From assembly GCA_041674405.1 (NCBI GenBank), contig JBAYVT010000001.1, positions 103,967 to 167,966 on the forward strand: DNA of 64,000 bases, written 5' to 3'. The notes below the pieces were generated by a model. That model saw only the letters and a list, made by a program, of their open reading frames with translations. It ran no database searches and was not told where the DNA came from. This stretch comes from Patescibacteria group bacterium (lineage in GTDB: Bacteria; Patescibacteriota; UBA1384; XYA2-FULL-43-10). This document shows positions 1,343 to 55,587 of this stretch, piece after piece (the first letter of the stretch is position 1; every line of letters begins with the position of its first letter). The position numbers and the translations under genes were made by a program.

Positions 1343-1665
1343 TATTTATTCCCATAAATGTAGAACATTTCCAGCACGAAGATAAATATACTATAAAATG
1401 GCAATGCACCCAAAAGAAGATGAGAAATATGTTCGTCTTTTTTATACGAATATATGGATAATATAAGATGCAATATTAATATTACCAGAAGAAGTTGAAT
1501 TGGATAATAGTTCAGGCGAGTATATACAAAAATACCATTATCTGTAATTCCTTTTGTCCAAATGAAATATTCGATAATCCCAGAAACTGCGGCAACAATG
1601 ACAAAATATCGATTGAATAAATCGTTCCAAAGGCAATTTTTAATGTTTTCAAATAATATTTTCAT
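1342..1665 (-). CDS. Small polytopic membrane protein (hypothetical). Its stop overlaps the GT2 start (TAATG).
   Basis: 107-aa ORF, very hydrophobic, translationally coupled to the downstream GT2. Confidence 0.5.
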   Translation of the reverse strand: MKILFENIKNCLWNDLFNRYFVIVAAVSGIIEYFIWTKGITDNGIFVYTRLNYYPIQLLLVILILHLILSIYSYKKDEHISHLLLGALPFYSIFIFVLEMFYIYGNK

Positions 1666-1671
1666 ATTGTT

Positions 1672-1747
1672 TGGAGCCGAAACCGGGAGTCGAACCCGGG
1701 ACCTTCACTTTACGAAAGTGCTGCTCTACCAACTGAGCTATTTCGGC
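1672..1747 (-). tRNA. tRNA-Thr (anticodon CGT)
   Basis: rc reads GCCGAAA-TA-GCTC-AGTTGGTA-GAGC...TTCGTAA (anticodon CGT)...CCGGGTTCGACTCCCGG-TTTCGGC-T-CCA. Cloverleaf is recognisable and CCA is encoded. Confidence 0.85.
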
Positions 1748-1751
1748 AATA

Positions 1752-2018
1752 GGCGACTAACAGGCGGGCGAAAGCATTGCTCTATCGACTGAGACCCGAA
1801 GGGTACCCTTTCCCGAAGGAAAGACCCAACGGGTAGCCATTGGCTCCTTTGGCTTGGGTCTACGCTGGCGAATCAAAAATCCCCTCATAATTCACTCATA
1901 AAGATAGCAAATATTAGGGGATTACACAATGCATTTGTAGCTCCTCGACAAACTCGGGGTAAACAGTTACCCCAATTTCGCGATTACGTTCCGCGGGGCA
2001 GCCAGAATTGATATTGTT
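1752..2018. ncRNA. Unassigned GC-rich, hairpin-dense ~270-nt spacer between tRNA-Thr and tRNA-Gly. Candidate structured RNA; identity unknown.
   Basis: Perfect hairpins GGGGTAAC/GTTACCCC, ATCCCCT...AGGGGAT, CTTTCC-CGAA-GGAAAG and GACCCAA...TTGGGTC. A segment resembles a tRNA D-arm (CTCAGTCGATAGAGC). No ORF. Confidence 0.25.
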
Positions 2019-2092
2019 TGGAGCGGGATACCGGAATCGAACCGGCGACTTATCCTTGGGAAGGACACATTTTACCACTAAACTAATCCCGC
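2019..2092 (-). tRNA. tRNA-Gly (anticodon CCC)
   Basis: rc reads GCGGGAT-TA-GTTT-AGTGGTA-AAAT-G-TGTCC-TTCCCAA-GGATA-AGTC-GCCGG-TTCGATT-CCGGT-ATCCCGC-T-CCA. Confidence 0.85.
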
Positions 2093-9548: not shown

Positions 9549-10079
9549 TTAGATTAACTCTTGTCTGTTCAATTTCATTAAATACTCAAAGTTGCCATCT
9601 TCTGTATTCCTTACCGTTTTGAAATGTTTGAAGCCCACTTTCTCGTATGCCCTGATTGCAGCCACATTCTTCGGGTCGGGAGCGATAATACATTTTTCTA
9701 CTTTAAATTGTTTGAAAGCAATTTCTTTAAGAAATTTTTTTATTATAAACTCACCATACCCTTTATGAAGGAAGTCTTGATTACCAATAAATAAATCTAC
9801 AGAAACGGCATTATCTTTGTAGTCAATTGCTTTTTTGTGGTCTGGATAATCATCCATCTGATAAGTCTGAATTAATCCGATGGGGGTTTGTTCAATATAT
9901 ATAATATGACAGAAGGTCGGCTTTTCGCCTGCTATTCTTGGCAGATAGATTTCATTTATTTCTTTCATTGTTGGCGTTCCAGGCCTGAACCACTCTTTCA
10001 CAAAATCTTGGTTTCGCCATTTCAACAGAAGAGGTAAATATTTTTGCTTCAATTTTTTGAACGAGATATTGCTTTCCAT
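9549..10079 (-). CDS. GNAT family N-acetyltransferase
   Basis: GNAT fold signature region ...HKGYGEFIIKKFLKEIAFKQF... Size is typical, about 176 aa. Confidence 0.7.
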   Translation of the reverse strand: MESNISFKKLKQKYLPLLLKWRNQDFVKEWFRPGTPTMKEINEIYLPRIAGEKPTFCHIIYIEQTPIGLIQTYQMDDYPDHKKAIDYKDNAVSVDLFIGNQDFLHKGYGEFIIKKFLKEIAFKQFKVEKCIIAPDPKNVAAIRAYEKVGFKHFKTVRNTEDGNFEYLMKLNRQELI

Positions 10080-10128
10080 TGTTTTATTTTAGCATAAAGA
10101 TAAATGAGTCAAAACTCCACTTTGCCTT

Positions 10129-10158
10129 CAACAAAAAAGTAAGATGCCGAGGCATCTT
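10129..10158 (-). terminator. Rho-independent terminator on minus strand
   Basis: Minus strand reads AAGATGCC-tcg-GGCATCTT followed by ACTTTTTTGTT. Confidence 0.65.
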
Positions 10159-10163
10159 TTTAA

Positions 10164-10183
10164 CCTGCCTGCCGGCAGGCAGG
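10164..10183. repeat. Perfect 20-bp GC-rich palindrome CCTGCCTGCCGGCAGGCAGG
   Basis: Exact inverted repeat. Candidate operator or recombination site. Confidence 0.6.
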
Positions 10184-10239
10184 CGCACTGAATTTACACT
10201 TTATTATTATATCTTGTTATATGCTACTGAGCTATCTTT

Positions 10240-10390
10240 TTCATTGGCGGGATCGACCGGACAATCTCACGCGGCCTTCGGCCTCTCCATAGGGCTTCCG
10301 CCCTCTGGCGCTTCGCTGTCACCTCGCACGGGAGACCAATTGTTCTCCCGACCCCACTCGTGTTCGAGTCCAGCCTTCTGCCTCCGCATA
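10240..10390 (-). ncRNA. Candidate ~150-nt GC-rich structured sRNA bracketed by two minus-strand terminators (identity unknown)
   Basis: ~60% GC in a ~35% background, with several hairpins (GGCCTTCGGCC, GGGAGAC..GTTCTCCC, ACTCG-tgtt-CGAGT). It lies between the terminators at 10388-10417 and 10129-10158. Overlapping ORFs on both strands look spurious. Confidence 0.3.
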
Positions 10391-10417
10391 AAACAAAAAT
10401 AGCCCAGTGGCTATTTT
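10388..10417 (-). terminator. Rho-independent terminator after tRNA-Asp
   Basis: Minus strand reads AAAATAGCC-actg-GGCTATTTT followed by TGTTTTAT. Confidence 0.7.
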
Positions 10418-10423
10418 GCTTTA

Positions 10424-10500
10424 TGGCGGGAACGACCGGACTCGAACCGGCGACCTCCACAGTGACAGTGTGGCGTTCTAACCAACTGAACTACGTCCCC
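10424..10500 (-). tRNA. tRNA-Asp (anticodon GTC)
   Basis: rc reads GGGGACG-TA-GTTC-AGTTGGTTA-GAAC-G-CCACA-CTGTCAC-TGTGG-AGGTC-GCCGG-TTCGAGT-CCGGT-CGTTCCC-G-CCA. Confidence 0.85.
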
Positions 10501-10555
10501 GTGCCAATTACCAACAAATTATAACAGAATTGCAGTTCCAGATCAAGATTCTACA

Positions 10556-11889: not shown

Positions 11890-12041
11890 CAACCTGTCCC
11901 CGTACAAGACTATATTCCTACATTTTTTGCAAAAAACTTTATTGCATTTTTTCGGCAACTCATTTGTCGATTTTTGATTCTTTTGTTAGAATGGCTTTGC
12001 CTGAAAAAGGAGTACCTACCATTACAAGGAGAGTGAGCGCA

Positions 12042-13091
12042 ATGCGCGATTGGATCAAGGGAACGGTTCGCCCGATTTCCTTTCTGGCCGTTGTCCCGGT
12101 ATTACTTGGTGCAATTGTCAGCGGAACGCGCATGGACCATCACATTGCCTATGCGCTCCTCGGTGCGATTTTGGCTGTTGGCTTCGCCAACAGCTTTAAC
12201 ATTGTAATCGATCGCAAGATTGACAAACACAATCCCGACAAGAAAACCCTAGCCATTCGTCAACCGGTGAGGGCTTGGTACGGAGTGCTGTTTCTGCTGC
12301 CCCCGCTGGCTTTCTGTCTGCGCAACTGCCAGTTCAACCACATCCTCCTCTCGATTCTTTTCTACCTGTCCTGCCTGTACAGTTACTTGTACGGCAATGT
12401 GCCAGTGTTGAAGAGAATATCGGTCGCGGCAATTGTTGCGGCCACGGCCTTCCTTGATGTGGAAAGGTTCAACCTCGCCGTGTGGGTGCTGGCAGTAGTC
12501 ATCTTTGCCTTCATCTACTGGCGGGAGTCGCACAAAGATTCCGACGACAGGAAGGAGGATACCGAAATGAAGTTCGCCTGGATTCGGACCGGGATCACGC
12601 TCAACTGGTGGCTCGTAACGGCGCCGATCGCGGGTGCGGCAATTTACCTCTCGTGCCTCGTTGCCACCGGGAAGCCAATCAGCACAGCAGACATAGCGCT
12701 CGCGCTCGGCATTGCGATCTCGATCTGGTCGTACGTTCAGATCAGGTCGAAATACCATCTGTACAAAGTGCGATTGGCCCATGGGGCGCCTGCAGGCCGC
12801 CTGGGAATAGTTGTCTCGATGGTGGGCTTGATGCCCTCCTTTGTCAACCCGCTGTTCCTGGCCATTGTGGTGGTAAACTGCGCCTCAATCATCCACCGCA
12901 GCTTCAGGGGCCAGATCCCTTTCCACACTGGCTCGATCGCCCATGATGCGTACCTCTGGGCGAGCCTACCGCTCATGGCCATGGCCAAAGTCGGCTATCA
13001 CCCACTACTTCTCGCCGCATCAATCCTGCTAGCCAGTGTCACTTGCGCCAACATGCACCGGCTGAAGTGTGCAACAACCCCTGCGATGTAG
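12042..13091 (+). CDS. UbiA-family membrane prenyltransferase-like protein (GC-rich gene, ~58% GC)
   Basis: NSFNIVIDRKIDKHNPDKKTLAIRQP resembles the UbiA N..D...D motif (DPPR-synthase-like), with 8-9 TM helices. AAGGAGAG RBS precedes ATG 12042; the track's TTG start at 11964 is in frame upstream. Confidence 0.55.
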   Translation: MRDWIKGTVRPISFLAVVPVLLGAIVSGTRMDHHIAYALLGAILAVGFANSFNIVIDRKIDKHNPDKKTLAIRQPVRAWYGVLFLLPPLAFCLRNCQFNHILLSILFYLSCLYSYLYGNVPVLKRISVAAIVAATAFLDVERFNLAVWVLAVVIFAFIYWRESHKDSDDRKEDTEMKFAWIRTGITLNWWLVTAPIAGAAIYLSCLVATGKPISTADIALALGIAISIWSYVQIRSKYHLYKVRLAHGAPAGRLGIVVSMVGLMPSFVNPLFLAIVVVNCASIIHRSFRGQIPFHTGSIAHDAYLWASLPLMAMAKVGYHPLLLAASILLASVTCANMHRLKCATTPAM

Positions 13092-45041: not shown

Positions 45042-48000
45042 TTATTTAATCCTCGAGATTCCGATCCAAATTTTCTCACCGTCGATACAGAATTCTTCTG
45101 AACCTTCCGGGTTTTCGATTTTTCCGTCAGTGCTTTCTTTCGCTAGTACTTCTTTGGCAATAATTTCCGACATTGATTTCATCACTTTTTTCAATACCTC
45201 TCCCGATGTAGCGTAATTTACAACTATCCTGTTCTCAACTTCAAACCCGGACTTTTTGCGTAGCGATTGGATGTTGCGGATGAGTTCCCTGGCAACACCT
45301 TCGGTTTTTAATTCGTCAGTTAATACCGTATCAAGCTCGACGCCTGTCTCCCCTACTCCGGAATTCTTATCTCCTTCGTCAATATGAATATCTCGTGCGT
45401 CGACATAAACTACTTTTTTCACATTTACTTCTTCAGCAATGATTGTTTCCAAATCTTCAGACAATTTTTTACCGGAATATTTTAGAAGAGCTAAAGGCTG
45501 GCGAACTTTTATTCCCGCTTCCGATCTTTTGGCTAAGCCAGCTTCAACAATCTGCCGTGTTTCTGCCATCTCATCCAGAACAGAAAGATCAAATTCTTCC
45601 GGTGCGGGGAAATCGGCCAAGTGTACCGATTCCGGATCACTTTCTTGCTTTAGGCCCTGATACACGGTTTCGGCGAACATCGGAGTAAACGGCGCCAAGA
45701 GTTTCGATAAGCCGATCAAAACTTCATACAAAGTATGATATGCCGATTCTTTATCGCTGTCAGACTCCGATTTCCAAAATCTGCGGCGTGAGCGGCGGAC
45801 ATACCAAGTAGAAAGTTCGTTTATAAAATCAAGAATCGTATTTGCCGGTCTGTAGGTATCATAGTTATCCAATGATTCGGTGATGGTTTCGGTAAGTTCG
45901 TTAAACTTCGCAAGGATCCATTTGTCTAGAATGTTTGTAGCTTCTGTTTTTCCGCTCGGCTTCCAACCGTCGATTGATGCGTACATAGAAAAGAATGAAT
46001 AAACATTCCAAAGCGTGATAAATAGGTTGCGGGAAACAGACAAAACTTCTTTTTCTGAAAAAAGCTTCGGCTCACCGGGCTGATTCACAGAATAAAGGAA
46101 GAAGCGGACGACATCGGCGCCAACTTTCTCAAATTCAGCCATCGGCTCGACAATGTTTCCCTTCGACTTCGACATTTTTTGCCCTTTTTCGTCTAGAATA
46201 TGTCCTGTCGAGATAACATTTTTAAAACAAGAATTATTTTTTACAATCGTCGAGATCGCGAGAAGCGTGTAAAACCAGCCTCGGGTTTGATCGATCGCTT
46301 CGCAAATGAAATCAGCCGGGTACTGCTCAGCAAAGAGTTCGCTGTTTTCGAATGGATAGTGATATTGGGCGTATGGCATGGAGCCGGAATCGAACCAGAC
46401 ATCCATCACTTCTGGAGTTCGTTTCATCGTTCCGCCGCATTTGCAGGTGAATTCAACCTCATCAACAAATGGTTTGTGAGGATCGAAGGCAGTACCGTCA
46501 GAATTTAGATAAAATTTATGAGATAATTCATGATCAGGGCGTTCGTGTTGGAAGTATCCAGAATAATCCAAGTTCCCTAAAATCATGTTCAATGCACCAT
46601 TAATGGCCCCGTGTGCAACAATAACGATTGTCTTACCAGGATATTCTTTTCCAATCTTGGCTAAAAATTCTTTGACCCTTTCTACAACATCAGCTCTCGT
46701 TTCCCCCGTGGTGCCAAGCTTAAAATTAAATCTTTGTTCAGGAATTTTCTCAGTCACCAAATAATCTTGAAAATCTTTCCTGTCAAGTCTTTGTTCGGGT
46801 GTAAGCTCATTCCATTCGCCGGAGTCCAGCTCAATGATTCTGTCGTCGAATATCAATTCCGCATCTACATGTTTCTTAACGATTTCTGCGGATTGCTTTG
46901 CTCTCAACACCGGAGAAGATATTATTATGTCAACTTTGTCCTTTATTTTTTTTGCGGTTGTTTCCACCTGAGTCACACCCTTCTCTGTAAGAGGCCATTT
47001 ATCAAGCGCTTTTGAATCAATATCAAGAATGTTTCTCTCCGTTTCACCGTGTCGGACAAAGATCAATTTCGTTACCTTAGTATTGCTCTCGTTGAAATCC
47101 ATAAAATTGCCAACGACTTTTTTCTCGTCACACTTGTCGCAAGTCCAGACCGGGAGCGGCGTCCCCCAATATCTGTCACGGGAAATTGCCCAGTCATTGA
47201 TATTTTCGAGCCAATTGCCAAAACGGCCGTGCTTTAAGTAGGCTGGGTTCCAGTTGATTGTCTCATTATTTTCAAGAAGCTCATCTCGAAGTTTCGACAT
47301 CGCGATATACCAAGAATCCTTGGCAAAGTAGAGAAGCGGTGAGTCACAACGCCAGCAGAACGGATAATCATGGGCGAACATCTCTTTTTTAAATAATATT
47401 CCACGTTTTTCAAGATCGAGTTTCACTTCTTTGTCGGCGTCTTTGACAAAGCTTCCTTTGCCAGCGCCGGCAAGCTCCGTCCCCTTTTCATCAACGGTCT
47501 TTAAAACCTTGATGCCGTTCTTGCGAAAACCAAATTCGTAATCATCCTCACCAAATGCCGGGGCAATGTGGACGATGCCGGTGCCGTCTGAATCGGTGAC
47601 AAAATCGGCGACAATCAGCTTGTAAACTTTCTCTCCACCTTCAGAAAATTTATCTCCGTCCGGATAAATCGCTTCGTAATCCGGTTTGTCGGTGAAAGAT
47701 GGGGCAGCAATTTCCGAACCGGTCAGCTCTTTAATGACATTTGCACCAGGCAAAACGGCATCGAGACGGCTTTGCGCAAGTATATACTTCTCTCCGTCTT
47801 TTTCTGCCAAAACGTATTTGATATTCGGGCCAAATGCTAGAGCGGCGTTGCCTGCGAGCGTCCAAGGCGTTGTCGTCCAGACAAGAAAATACGCATCTTC
47901 ATGATTTGATTTAACCTTGATATAGACTGATTCCTCTTCAACATTCTTGTATCCCTGGGCAACCTCATGAGAAGATAACGCCGTACCGCAGCGCGGGCAA

Positions 48001-48563
48001 TATGGCACGACTTTGTGGCCCCTGTAAAGCAAACCTCGTTTTTCAGCTTCGGATATCACCCACCAGATCGATTCGATATATTTGGAATCGTAGGTGACAT
48101 ATGGATCTTTCATATCGAGCCAGTAGGCCATGCGCTCGGTCATCTTTTCCCACTCGGATTTGTAAACAAAAACCGACTCTTTGCAAAGTTTATTGAATTT
48201 GGCAACCGAAGCATTTTTGTCGCCCGGAACGATATTCTCGATATCGCCCTTGCCAGAAATACCGAGCTCCTTCTCCACCTGAAGCTCTACCGGAAGCCCT
48301 TGCGTGTCCCAGCCTGCTTTGCGTCGGACATTGTAGCCTTGCATAGTTTTATATCGGTTGAAAAGATCTTTGAATGCGCGGTTTAGAACATGATGAATAC
48401 CAGGCTTGCCGTTGGCTGTCGGCGGTCCTTCATAGAATACAAAATTGCCTTTCGGGCTATCCTTCCCAAGGCTCTTCTCAAATGTTTTATCCTCTCGCCA
48501 AAATTCGAGAATTTTCTTCTCTTCTTCCGGTAAATTAAGTTTTGGATCAACCTTTTTGAACAT
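45042..48563 (-). CDS. ileS: Isoleucine--tRNA ligase, type 2 (eukaryote/archaea-like), carrying an inserted ~210-aa histidine-phosphatase-fold domain
   Basis: GPPTANGKPGIHHVL (HIGH region), CP1 editing domain, KMSKSKGN. The RHG-phosphatase insert (LIFVRHGETERN ... IVIVAHGAING) lies between the two zinc knuckles (WTCDKCDEK and FTCKCGG), at roughly nt 46476-47108. Confidence 0.9.
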   Translation of the reverse strand: MFKKVDPKLNLPEEEKKILEFWREDKTFEKSLGKDSPKGNFVFYEGPPTANGKPGIHHVLNRAFKDLFNRYKTMQGYNVRRKAGWDTQGLPVELQVEKELGISGKGDIENIVPGDKNASVAKFNKLCKESVFVYKSEWEKMTERMAYWLDMKDPYVTYDSKYIESIWWVISEAEKRGLLYRGHKVVPYCPRCGTALSSHEVAQGYKNVEEESVYIKVKSNHEDAYFLVWTTTPWTLAGNAALAFGPNIKYVLAEKDGEKYILAQSRLDAVLPGANVIKELTGSEIAAPSFTDKPDYEAIYPDGDKFSEGGEKVYKLIVADFVTDSDGTGIVHIAPAFGEDDYEFGFRKNGIKVLKTVDEKGTELAGAGKGSFVKDADKEVKLDLEKRGILFKKEMFAHDYPFCWRCDSPLLYFAKDSWYIAMSKLRDELLENNETINWNPAYLKHGRFGNWLENINDWAISRDRYWGTPLPVWTCDKCDEKKVVGNFMDFNESNTKVTKLIFVRHGETERNILDIDSKALDKWPLTEKGVTQVETTAKKIKDKVDIIISSPVLRAKQSAEIVKKHVDAELIFDDRIIELDSGEWNELTPEQRLDRKDFQDYLVTEKIPEQRFNFKLGTTGETRADVVERVKEFLAKIGKEYPGKTIVIVAHGAINGALNMILGNLDYSGYFQHERPDHELSHKFYLNSDGTAFDPHKPFVDEVEFTCKCGGTMKRTPEVMDVWFDSGSMPYAQYHYPFENSELFAEQYPADFICEAIDQTRGWFYTLLAISTIVKNNSCFKNVISTGHILDEKGQKMSKSKGNIVEPMAEFEKVGADVVRFFLYSVNQPGEPKLFSEKEVLSVSRNLFITLWNVYSFFSMYASIDGWKPSGKTEATNILDKWILAKFNELTETITESLDNYDTYRPANTILDFINELSTWYVRRSRRRFWKSESDSDKESAYHTLYEVLIGLSKLLAPFTPMFAETVYQGLKQESDPESVHLADFPAPEEFDLSVLDEMAETRQIVEAGLAKRSEAGIKVRQPLALLKYSGKKLSEDLETIIAEEVNVKKVVYVDARDIHIDEGDKNSGVGETGVELDTVLTDELKTEGVARELIRNIQSLRKKSGFEVENRIVVNYATSGEVLKKVMKSMSEIIAKEVLAKESTDGKIENPEGSEEFCIDGEKIWIGISRIK

Positions 48564-52143: not shown

Positions 52144-55100
52144 CTAAATCACGATATTTACAATTTTTCCAGGTACGACGATTACTTTTTTAATCTCTTT
52201 GCCAGTAATAAATGCGCTGACTTTTTCACTATTTTTAGCAGCTTCCTCGAGGGCAGTTTTTTCAATATCTTTATCTACTTCGATGACATCGCGAAGTTTG
52301 CCATTGACCTGAATGGCAATTTTGATCTTATCGTCGCCTTTCAAGCTTTCATCAAATTTCGGCCAAGCTGAATTTGAAACCAAACCCTCGTTGCCGAGCT
52401 TTTCCCATAATTCTTCGGCCAAATGAGGAGCAGCCGGTGCTAGAAGCTGGCAGAATACACCAAATGATTTTTTACTAATTTCTTTCTCGGCCGACATAAG
52501 ATTGTTGAAAGTCATAAGTTTGGCAACATAAGTATTCAAGTTGAATCGCTCAAGATCGTTCTCAACAGCAAAGACTAATTTATTTACAGCAACTGCAAGA
52601 TTATCACTATCAACTTTACCAGAGACTTTGTCCGAGTTTTCCCAAACTTTATTAAGAAATCTTGAAACGCCAGATAAGCCGTCCATGTTCCAGGCGGATT
52701 CTTTATCATACGGCCCGATGAACATAATGTAGGTGCGAAGCGCATCGGCACCATAGCGCTTCACAACATCATCCGGATTGACCACATTCCCCCGCGATTT
52801 GCTCATTTTTTGGTTGTCCGCGCCAAGTATGATCCCGTGAGCGATTCGTTTGTTATATGGCTCAAGCGTTGGCACTTTGCCAAGATCATATAGAAATTTG
52901 TGCCAAAAACGCGAATACAAAAGGTGCAAAGTTGTATGTTCGTTGCCGCCATTGTAAAGATCAACCGGCATCCAATATTTCAATTCTTTGACTGATGCTG
53001 AGAAAATGTCTTCGCTTGATTCATAATTCTTGATTCTTGATTCTTGATTCATTGCGTAAGCGATGAAGTACCACGATGATCCCGCCCAGTTTGGCATCGT
53101 ATCGGTCTCGCGCTTGGCGGGGCCGCCGCACTTCGGGCAGGTTGTATTTACCCAGTCGGTAATTGCGGCAAGCGGGGACTCACCGGTATCGGTCGGCTCA
53201 TACTTTTCAACCTCCGGTAAAGTAAGTGGTAAATCTTTCTCATCCATCGGCACAGTCCCGCACTTCTCGCAGTGGATGATAGGGATCGGCTCGCCCCAGT
53301 AGTGCTGGCGGGAAAATATCCAGTCACGAAGCTTGAAATTGACTGCGAAATCCCCGGCACCCATTTCCTTGAGCTTCTCGGTTATTTTCTTTTTACCTTC
53401 TTCTGATGTTAACCCATCAAACTCTTTGGAATTGGCAAGAACGCCATATTCCTCAAATGAATGTGCTGGATTATGAAAGCGGTCACGGACAATTTCATGC
53501 TCTATCGGCAGGACATATCCTTTGATATTCTCAATTTCATCCCAATCCGCCCAGAACGGTTCGCTTTCCTCTGCCTCTTCTTTGGATAACGGCTCCTGCT
53601 CCTCATCAAGCAACTCGAAAGCCAAAGGATAATATGTAGCTTTTCTATTCACATTTTTGTGAGTTGCATGGAAATGGACTTCCATCGGGCCGCCTAAGTT
53701 TCGAACGAATTTGACGTTCTTGTAACCGGTTTCTTCTAAAATCTCGCGCTTGGCGGTATCAACGATTGATTCACCTGGCTCAATGCCGCCGATAACCAAC
53801 CCGATCCAAGGAAACTTCTTCCACTTAAGGGCTAGAACTTTGTTATTTTTGGGATTTATTACCACGGCATAAACCTGCTTTCGCTCGACTGTCTCTACGC
53901 CATCGATTGGCGGATCATTTTTATCAATTAGTTTAGGAATGATAACTTCCTTGATTGGAATATTGTATTTTTCGGCAAATTCAAAATCCCTCTGGTCGTG
54001 CGCAGGCACCGCCATCACGGCACCGGTTCCATAGGTTGCGAGAACATAATCAGCAATCCACACAGAAACTTCCTCGCCGTTTATCGGATTTATAGCTTTA
54101 ATTCCTTTTAATTCCACTCCAGTCTTGTCTTTGGCAAGCTCAGTCCTGTCCATATCTGACTTTTTCTTCGCATTTTCAATATAGTTTTCCACATCTTTGA
54201 CATTTGATATTTGATCTTTGATTTTGTCAACGAGTTCGTGTTCCGGCGCTAATACTATATATGTCACGCCGAAAAGCGTATCCGCGCGAGTAGTGTAGAC
54301 CTTGATAATATTATCATTTAAGGATTCCAGAAACTTGGCTCTTTCAAGATCATTTTTTCCGGCTCTGCGTTCTTTTTGGGCGGTAATCTTATAACAATTT
54401 GCCAGCCATTTTGCATCGGGAACTAAAAATTCATGCCCGTCCAGTTCTTTTATAGTATCTCCCAGATCATGATCAAGTGTCCCAATCTCAATGTTGAAAT
54501 CATCAGTACGAAAGACGCAAACCTGAAATTTTCCGTTGTCCTTATCTTCAATTTTACTGTAACCAAGTTCAGAAAAGATTTTTTTGCTTTCATCAAAATC
54601 TTTGGCCAAAACTCCCAAATCAACATCTGCAGGATTTTCAAAAATATTTCCGCAATATCCAGCAACTGCAAAAGTACCATTAACCCAGAGTTTGATATTG
54701 CGCTTTTTAAATTCTGAATTGATCCTATCAATCGCTTCAAGCATTTTATTTGTTTTGTCAGAAATATTGGCATTCCCAAGATCAACTTTTTCTGAAGTTT
54801 GCTCCGCTTCGGTTGAAATGACAATTTTAAAATCAATTTCCGTTCCCTCGGATCGGCCAATCCAGTTTATCTGCTGGGTTTTGATATTCTCAAGATAATC
54901 AACGGTATCGAGATCCTTGATCAATCTATCTGCATAGGCTGTGATACGGAGCATCCATTGCTTCTGTTTGCGTTTTTCTGTCTGCGCGCCGCAGCGTTCA
55001 CAATTTCCGCCGATCACCTCTTCGTTGGCGAGGATGATTTTGCATGATGGGCACCAGTTAACTGGCATCTCGGCCTGAAATGCCAAGCGTGGAGTTTCTT

Positions 55101-55587
55101 TGTCGTCATCGGCAACTTCGACAAGCTTGCCGTTGACAATCGCGTGCTTATAGAACTGCATGAATATCCACTGCGTCCATTTATAATAATTGGGATCAGT
55201 AGTATTGACCTCGCGACCCCAATCGAAGGAATAGCCAAGCGATTTCATCTGCTTTTTGAAGGTCGCAATACTTAGTGTGGTAACGTCTCTTGGTTTTGTC
55301 TTGGTTTTAATTGCGTAATTCTCTGTCGGCAGACCAAATGCGTCCCAACCCATTGGAAAAAGAACATTGTAGCCTTGCATCCTTTTCATACGCGTAAACG
55401 CATCCGAGGCGGTGTAACCCATGCAGTGTCCAACGTGCAATCCTGATCCGGAAGGATAAGGGAACTCCATGAGGGAGTAGAACTTCGGCTTATCGGAAAA
55501 ATCAATGGACTGGCCGTATTTCGCCTCTTCCCAGGCCTTCTGCCATTTAGATTCAATTTTTTCAAAATCGTATTTTGCCATAATCAA
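52144..55587 (-). CDS. leuS: Leucine--tRNA ligase carrying two inserted enzyme-fold domains (nucleotidyltransferase-like and NUDIX)
   Basis: HVGHCMGY (HIGH), CPSC...CERCG zinc domain, NWIGRSEG, CP1 editing, KMSKSRGN, 1147 aa. Insert 1 sits between EIDFKI and VYTTRADT (E. coli has 7 aa there) and contains GTFAVAGYCGNIFENPADVDLGVL, a GS...DhDh nucleotidyltransferase motif. Insert 2 after YNIPIKEVI contains the Nudix box GGIEPGESIVDTAKREILEETGY. Confidence 0.9.
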   Translation of the reverse strand: MIMAKYDFEKIESKWQKAWEEAKYGQSIDFSDKPKFYSLMEFPYPSGSGLHVGHCMGYTASDAFTRMKRMQGYNVLFPMGWDAFGLPTENYAIKTKTKPRDVTTLSIATFKKQMKSLGYSFDWGREVNTTDPNYYKWTQWIFMQFYKHAIVNGKLVEVADDDKETPRLAFQAEMPVNWCPSCKIILANEEVIGGNCERCGAQTEKRKQKQWMLRITAYADRLIKDLDTVDYLENIKTQQINWIGRSEGTEIDFKIVISTEAEQTSEKVDLGNANISDKTNKMLEAIDRINSEFKKRNIKLWVNGTFAVAGYCGNIFENPADVDLGVLAKDFDESKKIFSELGYSKIEDKDNGKFQVCVFRTDDFNIEIGTLDHDLGDTIKELDGHEFLVPDAKWLANCYKITAQKERRAGKNDLERAKFLESLNDNIIKVYTTRADTLFGVTYIVLAPEHELVDKIKDQISNVKDVENYIENAKKKSDMDRTELAKDKTGVELKGIKAINPINGEEVSVWIADYVLATYGTGAVMAVPAHDQRDFEFAEKYNIPIKEVIIPKLIDKNDPPIDGVETVERKQVYAVVINPKNNKVLALKWKKFPWIGLVIGGIEPGESIVDTAKREILEETGYKNVKFVRNLGGPMEVHFHATHKNVNRKATYYPLAFELLDEEQEPLSKEEAEESEPFWADWDEIENIKGYVLPIEHEIVRDRFHNPAHSFEEYGVLANSKEFDGLTSEEGKKKITEKLKEMGAGDFAVNFKLRDWIFSRQHYWGEPIPIIHCEKCGTVPMDEKDLPLTLPEVEKYEPTDTGESPLAAITDWVNTTCPKCGGPAKRETDTMPNWAGSSWYFIAYAMNQESRIKNYESSEDIFSASVKELKYWMPVDLYNGGNEHTTLHLLYSRFWHKFLYDLGKVPTLEPYNKRIAHGIILGADNQKMSKSRGNVVNPDDVVKRYGADALRTYIMFIGPYDKESAWNMDGLSGVSRFLNKVWENSDKVSGKVDSDNLAVAVNKLVFAVENDLERFNLNTYVAKLMTFNNLMSAEKEISKKSFGVFCQLLAPAAPHLAEELWEKLGNEGLVSNSAWPKFDESLKGDDKIKIAIQVNGKLRDVIEVDKDIEKTALEEAAKNSEKVSAFITGKEIKKVIVVPGKIVNIVI

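Follow-up and report, generated by a model that had tools for sequence, protein, structure and literature searches.

A repeated, structured non-coding unit in Patescibacteria-like bacteria with ends copied from the neighbouring tRNA or rplL gene

The segment downstream of the tRNA-Asp(GTC) gene in a 64 000 nt stretch of a Patescibacteria group bacterium (assembly GCA_041674405.1, contig JBAYVT010000001.1, positions 103 967 to 167 966; this whole stretch is referred to below as the window, and positions are given in its coordinates) is a real, conserved, structured non-coding unit. It belongs to a repeated family in which the ends of the element are copies of the adjacent gene's 3′ end. The family was previously uncatalogued, and its members are protein-less elements of about 110–200 nt. 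An earlier note on this DNA, made from the sequence alone, had described an isolated small RNA (sRNA) gene between two terminators. Its discrete, conserved and structured non-coding unit on the minus strand has stood up to comparison, but the unit has no sigma-70-like promoter of its own and is insertion-like, the corresponding site of a relative being empty, and instead of standing alone it is one copy of a family with neighbour-derived ends. We consider the chances about even that the segment 10387–10245 (minus strand), together with the spacer hairpin T1 that precedes it, is a copy of an insertion element that is small, non-autonomous and biased in its orientation and that encodes a structured RNA.

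Results

Arms copied from the neighbouring gene

Both of the repeats that bound the unit, a 3′ direct repeat of the end of the tRNA-Asp gene and a 5′ inverted copy of the same region, had been overlooked in the earlier note. The 3′ arm, GTCCGGTCGATCCCGCCA (10262–10245; all features are on the minus strand unless stated), reproduces the last 18 nt of tRNA-Asp, CCA included, at 17 of 18 positions, and two matches occurred in none of 100 shuffles; its variant CGAUCCC is the acceptor allele of the tRNA-Asp found in a Patescibacteria metagenome-assembled genome (MAG), locus L006. The 5′ arm (10387–10362), recognized from its sequence and from minimum-free-energy pairing, is an inverted (antisense), partly diverged copy of the tRNA-Asp 3′ region that takes in the T-loop, the T-stem and the 3′ strand of the acceptor. 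Within it, GGCUGGAC (10375–10368) pairs with GUCCGGUC of the 3′ arm and GCGG (10387–10384) pairs with CCGC near the 3′ end, and the arms can close the element as a helix, P1. The block GUGAGAU (10264–10270), shared by most tRNA-linked copies whichever of the two subtypes described below they belong to, sits where the T-loop copy would be and would form tandem G·A/A·G pairs opposite UCGAAC of the 5′ arm.

The tRNA-Asp gene itself (10424–10500), the host gene whose 3′ end the element copies, was called by ARAGORN and scores 70.8 bits with the Rfam tRNA model; a promoter-like site lies upstream of it at 10546–10518. Between this gene and the 5′ arm the terminator scan located T1 (10391–10417, with the terminator-like hairpin at 10417–10396), of the form AAAAUAGCC-ACUG-GGCUAUUUU followed by a U-tract, which looks like a bidirectional terminator. 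T1 lies at the centre of a long imperfect palindrome that runs from the 3′ end of the tRNA to the 5′ arm, and palindromic spacers are likewise seen in other copies of the element. The order of features given in the earlier note was borne out (tRNA-Asp, a terminator, a GC-rich segment, an AT-rich spacer, a palindrome at 10164–10183 and a second terminator), as was its GC content of some 60 %, which we find to be 58–64 % across about 10250–10400 against a window background of about 38 %.

A search for the same element elsewhere, which the earlier note had proposed, was carried out with a degenerate core pattern of 22 specified bases, for which less than one chance hit was estimated. The pattern matched 63 metagenome contigs, and similarity search yielded a further genome copy (L010), in which tRNA-Gln is followed by a hairpin and then by the core, GAGUGGGGU-GGGA...UGGUCUCCC, ending in a copy of the tRNA-Gln 3′ end. 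Fifty-five copies are distinct, and the 48 with complete flanks were used for counts of neighbours. Thirty-nine of the 48 lie directly downstream of, and co-oriented with, a tRNA gene or rplL, genes that are both strongly conserved and highly expressed: 32 are situated 17–130 nt downstream of a co-oriented called tRNA gene (11 identities), three follow a tRNA-Asn gene that ARAGORN misses since it contains a group I intron, and four follow rplL. About four of the 48 are ‘mirrored’, converging on a tRNA gene, and some 90 % of the classified copies are co-oriented with the host gene. When a diverged copy linked to tRNA-Pro is included, at least 12 tRNA identities are represented overall. In L139 and L117 the 3′ end of the upstream gene (...CTGCCA) is not recognizable as a tRNA. 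The host organisms are Patescibacteria-like bacteria with small genomes. A search of a genome collection with a flanking exonuclease gave 80 loci from Patescibacteria and DPANN; the exonuclease relatives, at most 63 % identical and scattered over the candidate phyla radiation (CPR) and DPANN, were informative only for L006 and L010, and four metagenome assemblies of the window's organism are identical and carry no comparative signal. The best matches of the exonuclease, the tRNA-Asp identity with L006 and the origins of the family members suggest that the window's organism is probably related to Patescibacteria.

The copying of the neighbouring gene extends to the family. A direct repeat of the 3′ end of the upstream gene with a score of at least 12 is present in 33 of the 48 complete copies (shuffled maximum, 10), and in other copies, too, an inverted copy of the neighbour's 3′ end sits just 5′ of the core. 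The repeat takes in the last 18–25 nt of the host gene and is sometimes extended through the terminator, as in L104, L118 and L135; in L103 the arm is perfect over 21 nt. Arms of the rplL-linked copies reproduce the 3′ end of rplL, stop codon included, and the downstream copy differs from the real gene end, as read from the sequences, by synonymous changes only; it follows that the arms come from the target and are no signal peculiar to tRNAs. Where the tRNA gene has no encoded CCA, the 3′ arm lacks it also (L010, L091 and L100). The CCA of the 3′ arm thus follows the gene, so that the template must be DNA or the primary transcript, and we have rejected a retro-copy from mature tRNA.

Conserved fold

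From 5′ to 3′ the unit comprises the 5′ arm, the block GAGUGGGGUC, hairpin A, a joining segment ending in GGAA, hairpin B or the domain that replaces it, a variable hairpin C, GUGAGAU or a true copy of the T-loop, and the 3′ arm. Two subtypes are distinguished: in subtype A, hairpin B carries the invariant loop AACCGWGGGU; in subtype B, to which the window's copy belongs, GGGGUGAC and a GGAA-capped hairpin stand in place of hairpin B. In the window the single-stranded block GAGUGGGGUC (10350–10359) forms part of the core search pattern, and it is kept as G(A/G)GGGG(U/C)C in diverged copies. It is followed by hairpin A (GGGAGA-ACAAUUGG-UCUCCC, 10330–10349), by the subtype-B domain (10286–10329), which opens with GUGCGAGGUGAC and ends with the GGAA-capped hairpin CC-AGA-GGGC-GGAA-GCCC-UAU-GG (10308–10287), and by hairpin C (GGCC-GAA-GGCC, 10273–10283). 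The internal loop of the GGAA-capped hairpin seems to resemble a tetraloop receptor. The invariant blocks of the domain are common to the window, L112, L118, L130, L137, L138 and L145; copies of subtype B, with the invariant block CCAGAGGGCGGAAGCCCUAUGGA, stand beside tRNA-Asp, tRNA-Asn and tRNA-Leu in different organisms, and their cores are nearly identical across these sites.

The small hairpins listed in the earlier note do occur in the sequence, and its description of the segment as structured has been upheld, not by single-sequence folding, but only through comparison with other copies. Hairpin A shows compensatory double changes in five of its eight pairs among 26 copies, a figure reached in none of 500 shuffles, and slid controls gave 0–2. 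Hairpin B is represented by about 19–24 distinct complementary stem sequences, with a mean of 5.4 consecutive Watson–Crick pairs when each strand is compared with its own partner versus 2.7 in cross-copy comparisons, and with five or more pairs in 83 % of own-strand versus 8 % of cross-copy comparisons. Hairpin C, GGCC/GGCC in the window, is GCAC-GGA-GUGC in the orthologous L138 and AGGC/GCCU or GGC/GCC in other subtype-B copies, and the small hairpin next to the GGAA-capped one covaries between GCC/GGC and GCU/AGC. The preservation of helices by compensatory substitution across homologues, which is the general mark of a structured RNA, is thus evident in this family. MAFFT and RNAalifold applied to whole units recovered hairpin A only, because the variable hairpins misalign; helices were parsed sequence by sequence, and column offsets made a hand-written covariance structure unreliable.

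Covariation was also seen between the variable loop base of hairpin B and the base that stands two positions ahead of GGAA. In a hand tabulation this pair was U–A in 19 copies, G·U in 15 and A–U in three, with about three exceptions, and a script counted 16, 15 and three, with off-register capture for one class. A pseudoknot of 4 bp probably links the hairpins. In P1, four G·U pairs were counted against no A·C on the element's strand, and this bias, together with the G·U pairs of the pseudoknot, favours an RNA co-directional with the tRNA. We therefore have moderate confidence that the RNA would be made in the direction of the tRNA.

Copy number and an empty site

The tRNA-Asp gene of L006 is 97 % identical to that of the window, and the element is absent from it. 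The post-tRNA flank of L006 aligns with the flank that follows the 3′ arm in L138 at a score of 143 (shuffles: mean 15.6, maximum 30), whereas against the L138 spacer it scores only 18. Relative to L006, the window and L138 thus carry an insert of about 196 bp bounded by the repeat, the 3′ arm marking its boundary. An adjacent pair of genes for tRNA-Gly(CCC) and tRNA-Thr(CGT) is common to the window (1672–2092) and L006 (14268–14417) and can be taken as a small synteny in support of their relatedness; neither gene of the pair in the window has an element.

Between the window and L138 the element appears to have been vertically inherited. T1 (window 10391–10423 compared with L138) is identical at 45 of 46 positions, identity falls to about 60 % in the adjacent 5′-arm region, and the tRNAs of the two loci differ strongly over their 5′ two-thirds; T1 seems to be under constraint at the sequence level or to have been recently exchanged. 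In L138, a 94-aa GIY-YIG-like ORF (about 1203–829, minus strand of that locus) lies directly upstream of tRNA-Asp, its stop codon overlapping the tRNA 5′ end, and is preceded by a partial tRNA-Asp-like 5′ part that ends at the T-loop position. This cassette, seen among the element-bearing loci in L138 only, is a second insertion, by which the opposite end of this tRNA has been duplicated.

Strict matches to the core number one per contig, even in contigs of 200–430 kb. A profile hidden Markov model (HMM) revealed further, diverged copies: in L098 at least four tRNA genes within 10 kb each have their own element, and L134, L103 and L117 have two copies each. The 1.9-kb contig L122, included in its whole length, holds three elements in alternating orientation with common tRNA-Ser-like arms, one of them with a shorter core, GGGAAGGGACC, and without hairpin A. 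Since a locus can thus hold several diverged copies, a single-copy housekeeping RNA was rejected. Related genomes have the site occupied (the window and L138) or empty (L006), and copies lie at several different sites, as is generally expected of a mobile element.

Comparison with known RNAs, genes and replicons

The segment was assigned to no known RNA family by the Rfam scan that the earlier note had also proposed. Gathering and permissive scans of the window and of 16 other copies with Rfam 15 returned no signal recognition particle RNA, 6S RNA, ribozyme, riboswitch or other family for the element; the permissive scans gave matches only to tRNAs, the end of one rRNA and a single group I intron elsewhere, apart from hits at chance level. 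The earlier note had reported an 11-nt match to an RNase P motif and had dismissed that identity, and it was right to do so, since no Rfam family matches at E≤10 and no RNase P RNA model matches at this threshold over 511 nt or in the 16 other copies. RNase P RNA is about 300 nt in length and the element about 110–150 nt. The 11-nt match lies on the strand opposite to that favoured by the pairing data and falls within an invariant block of the window's subtype. With its thresholds lowered, RF00010 does detect the diverged RNase P RNAs of the CPR (PMC8172020). ARAGORN and the Rfam tRNA model call only the true tRNA-Asp and find neither a tRNA nor a pseudogene cloverleaf at 10245–10390; no transfer-messenger RNA (tmRNA) was found in the window by ARAGORN or by Rfam at E≤10; and the tRNA-like structure (TLS) models of Rfam do not recognize the element.

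Nor does RF00028 match the element as a group I intron, and the tRNA upstream of it is intact. In L089 the tRNA-Asn gene (1617–1840, minus strand of that locus) is split by a group I intron whose Rfam score, 46.8 bits, falls slightly short of the gathering threshold, and intron-interrupted tRNA-Asn loci of the same type, in which ARAGORN misses the tRNA, are present in L120 and L136. Group I introns have been described at position 35/36 of Patescibacteria tRNAs (PMC13011429); these explain the interrupted tRNA-Asn upstream of some copies but not the element.

The overlapping ORFs, which the earlier note had taken for artefacts of GC content, are not genes. The ORFs at 10079–10402 (plus strand), 10224–10460 and 10267–10389 are excluded by an indel of 17 nt that separates the window from L138, and the variable-length hairpins likewise led us to reject all three as coding; stems change in a compensatory manner between the two loci, and one ORF overlaps the tRNA gene. 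No reading frame is preserved among the homologues, and the support for one ORF by conservation that would have spoken against a non-coding unit was not found.

No ORF, and so no integrase gene, fits inside the insert of about 180 bp, no recombinase recurs within ±6 kb of the copies, and none is found by Pfam among the neighbours in the window. When the ORFs within ±6 kb were clustered all-versus-all, no protein family proved to be consistently linked: the largest cluster is GTPase-looking and occurs at scattered positions, and the rplJ and rplL clusters merely reflect the rplL-linked copies. Two candidate partners were rejected, the GIY-YIG cassette as unique to L138 and a serine recombinase of L139 as simply adjacent. 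The latter is encoded by a large, convergent ORF that abuts the tRNA-like 3′ arm and has homologues in L136 and L118; the 3′ arm of L139 may serve as an attachment site for another mobile element. Four scans of viral collections with the core pattern and two other conserved blocks gave no match, and in a plasmid search only the tRNA matched; a plasmid or phage origin was rejected. In the searchable literature no description of the element was found, either by keywords or by conserved sequence strings.

Discussion

The putative insertion element would be transcribed by read-through from the promoter of the host gene, be it a tRNA gene or rplL; the promoter scan found no sigma-70-like promoter specific to the element and about 90 % of copies are co-oriented, and for these reasons we regard expression by read-through, with the RNA as the selected product, as most likely. 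The folded RNA would help to maintain or spread the element itself, for example by acting in processing or by directing recombination, and the duplicated target end would keep the host gene intact, as happens in integrase-type insertions at tRNA 3′ ends. New insertions might be made through recombination at the duplicated 3′ end, by Campbell-type or homology-assisted integration or by homing after a break. The inverted arm might be made by snap-back or template-switch synthesis at the terminator hairpin, might come from a small circle that carries a hairpin copy of the target, or might result from selection for P1 pairing. Patchy presence, variable copy number and the re-targeting of tRNAs fit a selfish, non-autonomous element better than a housekeeping RNA of the host.

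A number of observations weigh against reading the unit as an RNA-encoding insertion element. Folding energy does not differ significantly from that of shuffles on either strand (z = −0.97 and −1.41). The pseudoknot signal comes from two or three sequence classes and may be partly phylogenetic, and part of the family's apparent conservation is fixed by the core search pattern itself. The evidence for strand is modest, and the closing pair of hairpin A, C·A in two copies, would be U·G on the other strand. Read-through is assumed past a terminator-like hairpin that lies between tRNA and element, and deletion between direct repeats could equally produce the empty site. No recombinase, nuclease or reverse transcriptase is consistently linked to the copies, and Patescibacteria are reported to be without group II introns (PMC13011429).

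A more far-reaching version of the insertion-element reading, to which we give a substantial chance, though one well below even, is that of a new class of small, programmable mobile RNA that needs no protein gene, in which a pseudoknotted RNA of about 100 nt would use base pairing to home to the 3′ ends of genes with high expression. Such an RNA, riding on tRNA transcription, would act as a ribozyme, or as a guide or scaffold for a host enzyme, and each new target would serve afresh as the template for both arms, the 5′ arm in antisense and the 3′ arm in sense.

The same observations can be read in other ways, among which a non-coding RNA of benefit to the host, though in our judgement unlikely, has the most in its favour. 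Its terminal helix would imitate the acceptor/T-arm minihelix of the neighbouring tRNA with an NCCA 3′ end, and the RNA, matured, stabilized or recognized by RNase P, RNase Z or the CCA-adding enzyme and possibly by a synthetase or EF-Tu, would be a regulator, decoy or sensor tied to that tRNA. The 5′ arm does correspond in most copies to the 5′ strands of acceptor and T-stem and the 3′ arm to the 3′ strands of T-stem and acceptor with CCA, so that P1 would be a minihelix whose T-loop is replaced by the body; the conservation of the fold by compensatory change, the apparent vertical inheritance between the window and L138 and the strong co-orientation with tRNAs are all as this explanation would have them. 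However, the arms of rplL-linked copies have no likeness to tRNA, the 3′ arm of mirrored copies is antisense to the tRNA, a processing signal need not copy the adjacent tRNA specifically, and ARAGORN and the tRNA, tmRNA and TLS models of Rfam fail to recognize the structure; moreover, L006 has no element at the same tRNA, and copy number is variable. We think it quite improbable, in turn, that the unit functions at the level of DNA, whether as a single-stranded stem imitating the target, like the attP of CTX phage or the attC of integrons, or as an island remnant or cis-mobilizable miniature served by an integrase in trans. Integrases that target tRNA, tmRNA and rplL genes yield targets and direct repeats of this kind. 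The inverted arms lie some 100 nt apart and the hairpins could be features of DNA with no need of an RNA, and the duplications that span the terminator in L104, L118 and L135 would suit Campbell-type integration; the serine recombinase gene abutting the 3′ arm of L139 and the alternating array with common arms in L122 point the same way. Yet no integrase is consistently nearby, and the arms differ from target to target, so that one sequence-specific recombinase cannot recognize them all. A core of about 100 nt conserved across very different genomes, with pseudoknot-like covariation and G·U pairs, would be unusual for att sites, and strong co-orientation with host genes is not predicted by a structure of this kind.

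Two simpler accounts are confined to the locus itself. A free-standing gene for a trans-acting sRNA between two terminators, its resemblance to the tRNA end being incidental, would agree with the terminator-like hairpins on both sides and with the GC-rich, conserved body, but the repeat of the tRNA end is not due to chance and recurs with each neighbour's own sequence, no promoter-like site is present, and the second terminator lies about 85 nt beyond the conserved unit with unrelated repeats between; we hold this to be very unlikely. That the segment is a decayed, functionless tandem duplicate of tRNA-Asp with extra sequence inserted is scarcely credible. GGGGUCG (10355–10349) could pair with CGAUCCC in the manner of an acceptor, with a D-arm-like GAGA-ACAAUUGG-UCUC next to it, but this very block is the invariant core of the family, found also beside tRNA-Gln, tRNA-Lys, tRNA-Leu, rplL and other genes, where pairing with the 3′ arm is impossible. 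A neutral pseudogene would not be expected to show compensatory evolution in several helices, neither ARAGORN nor Rfam finds a tRNA at this place, and the decayed duplicate, contradicted by the family data, was rejected.

Among known systems, the nearest analogues of the insertion element that we favour are integrative elements, folded attachment sites and guide RNAs, each of which shares one or two features with it and fails on others. The tRNA-targeting integrative elements (tyrosine-integrase islands, prophages and cis-mobilizable elements, with integrative and conjugative elements at the 3′ end of rplL) likewise insert at the 3′ ends of tRNA genes or rplL and are bounded by a direct repeat of that end, which leaves the gene intact, with an empty site in a relative; the direct repeat of the tRNA 3′ end bounding the insert is present in our case. 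Unlike them, the element is only about 180–200 bp long with no integrase or ORF, its arms fit many targets and include an extra, inverted copy of the target, its body has a conserved fold with a probable pseudoknot, and the element shows strong co-orientation with the host gene. In folded single-stranded attachment sites, such as CTX phage attP and integron attC, inverted repeats about 60–140 nt apart similarly imitate the target duplex and structure is conserved more than arm sequence, whereas the centre of the element, with its hairpins and pseudoknot, is strongly conserved, its arms vary, and no partner of the Xer or IntI type was identified. Transposon guide RNAs (the omega RNA/reRNA of IS200/IS605 and the bridge RNA of IS110) resemble it in joining a scaffold of about 100–200 nt to target-matching segments; no TnpB, IscB or IS110 recombinase gene lies in or beside the element, Rfam gives no match, and its target-matching segments are complementary to each other rather than to adjacent half-sites.

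The group I introns of Patescibacteria tRNA genes (PMC13011429) share the phylum, the kind of host gene and a small ORF-less structured RNA, and the 5′ segment complementary to host RNA recalls their internal guide sequence. The element differs from them in lying outside the mature tRNA and not at position 35/36, in being far smaller and in leaving the host gene uninterrupted; no Rfam Intron_gpI match falls on it, the 46.8-bit match of L089 being the intron of the upstream tRNA. With tRNA-like domains (tmRNA, viral TLS and mascRNA-type minihelices) most copies have in common a 3′ end made up of T-stem and acceptor strand with CCA and paired with the 5′ end. The element, however, is recognized by neither ARAGORN nor Rfam, and what it mimics is the adjacent gene; rplL-linked and mirrored copies show no such mimicry.

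If the insertion-element reading is right, Patescibacteria carry uncatalogued structured elements that exploit the 3′ ends of tRNA genes and rplL in a new way, too small to encode a protein and yet with ends tailored, in sense and antisense, to their own insertion sites. The re-specification of arms of about 20 nt by an element that has no protein gene would bear on programmable recombination and on RNA-guided mobility. In practical terms, such elements create false ORFs and tRNA-end fragments in CPR genomes and can be mistaken for the att sites of islands or for sRNAs. The core pattern, the two body subtypes and more than 55 distinct copies provide a covariation data set ready for a new RNA model.

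Other features of the window

The stretch downstream of the 3′ arm (10131–10244), consisting of the AT-rich spacer, the palindrome and the second terminator-like hairpin, lies outside the conserved unit, which the earlier note had not recognized; in other copies a terminator directly follows the 3′ arm, unlike in the window. The second hairpin, located by the terminator scan at 10158–10141, stands ahead of a GNAT acetyltransferase gene (9549–10079, from the Pfam annotation of neighbours). The GC-rich 20-bp palindrome, CCTGCCTGCCGGCAGGCAGG (10164–10183), recurs as a 15-mer in unrelated CPR loci (L056:12964; L060 at 633, 978, 6121 and 8994; L088:7650; L142:532), about 0.002 chance matches being estimated in the 1.3 Mb compared, and in L142 the palindrome has been inserted within a further copy of the element. 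The palindrome resembles a very small repeat of the REP (repetitive extragenic palindromic) or MITE (miniature inverted-repeat transposable element) kind.

Further along the window, a gene for a UbiA-family prenyltransferase (11964–13091, plus strand) lies in a patch of 55–60 % GC within a genome of about 38 % GC and was possibly acquired horizontally in recent times. The isoleucyl-tRNA synthetase (1173 aa; 45042–48563) has an internal histidine-phosphatase-like domain at about residues 498–674. The leucyl-tRNA synthetase (1147 aa; 52144–55587) matches family models in separate stretches, class-I N-terminal to about residues 190–225 and LeuRS best at 688–1147, from which we infer that an insert of several hundred residues probably lies between the matching stretches.

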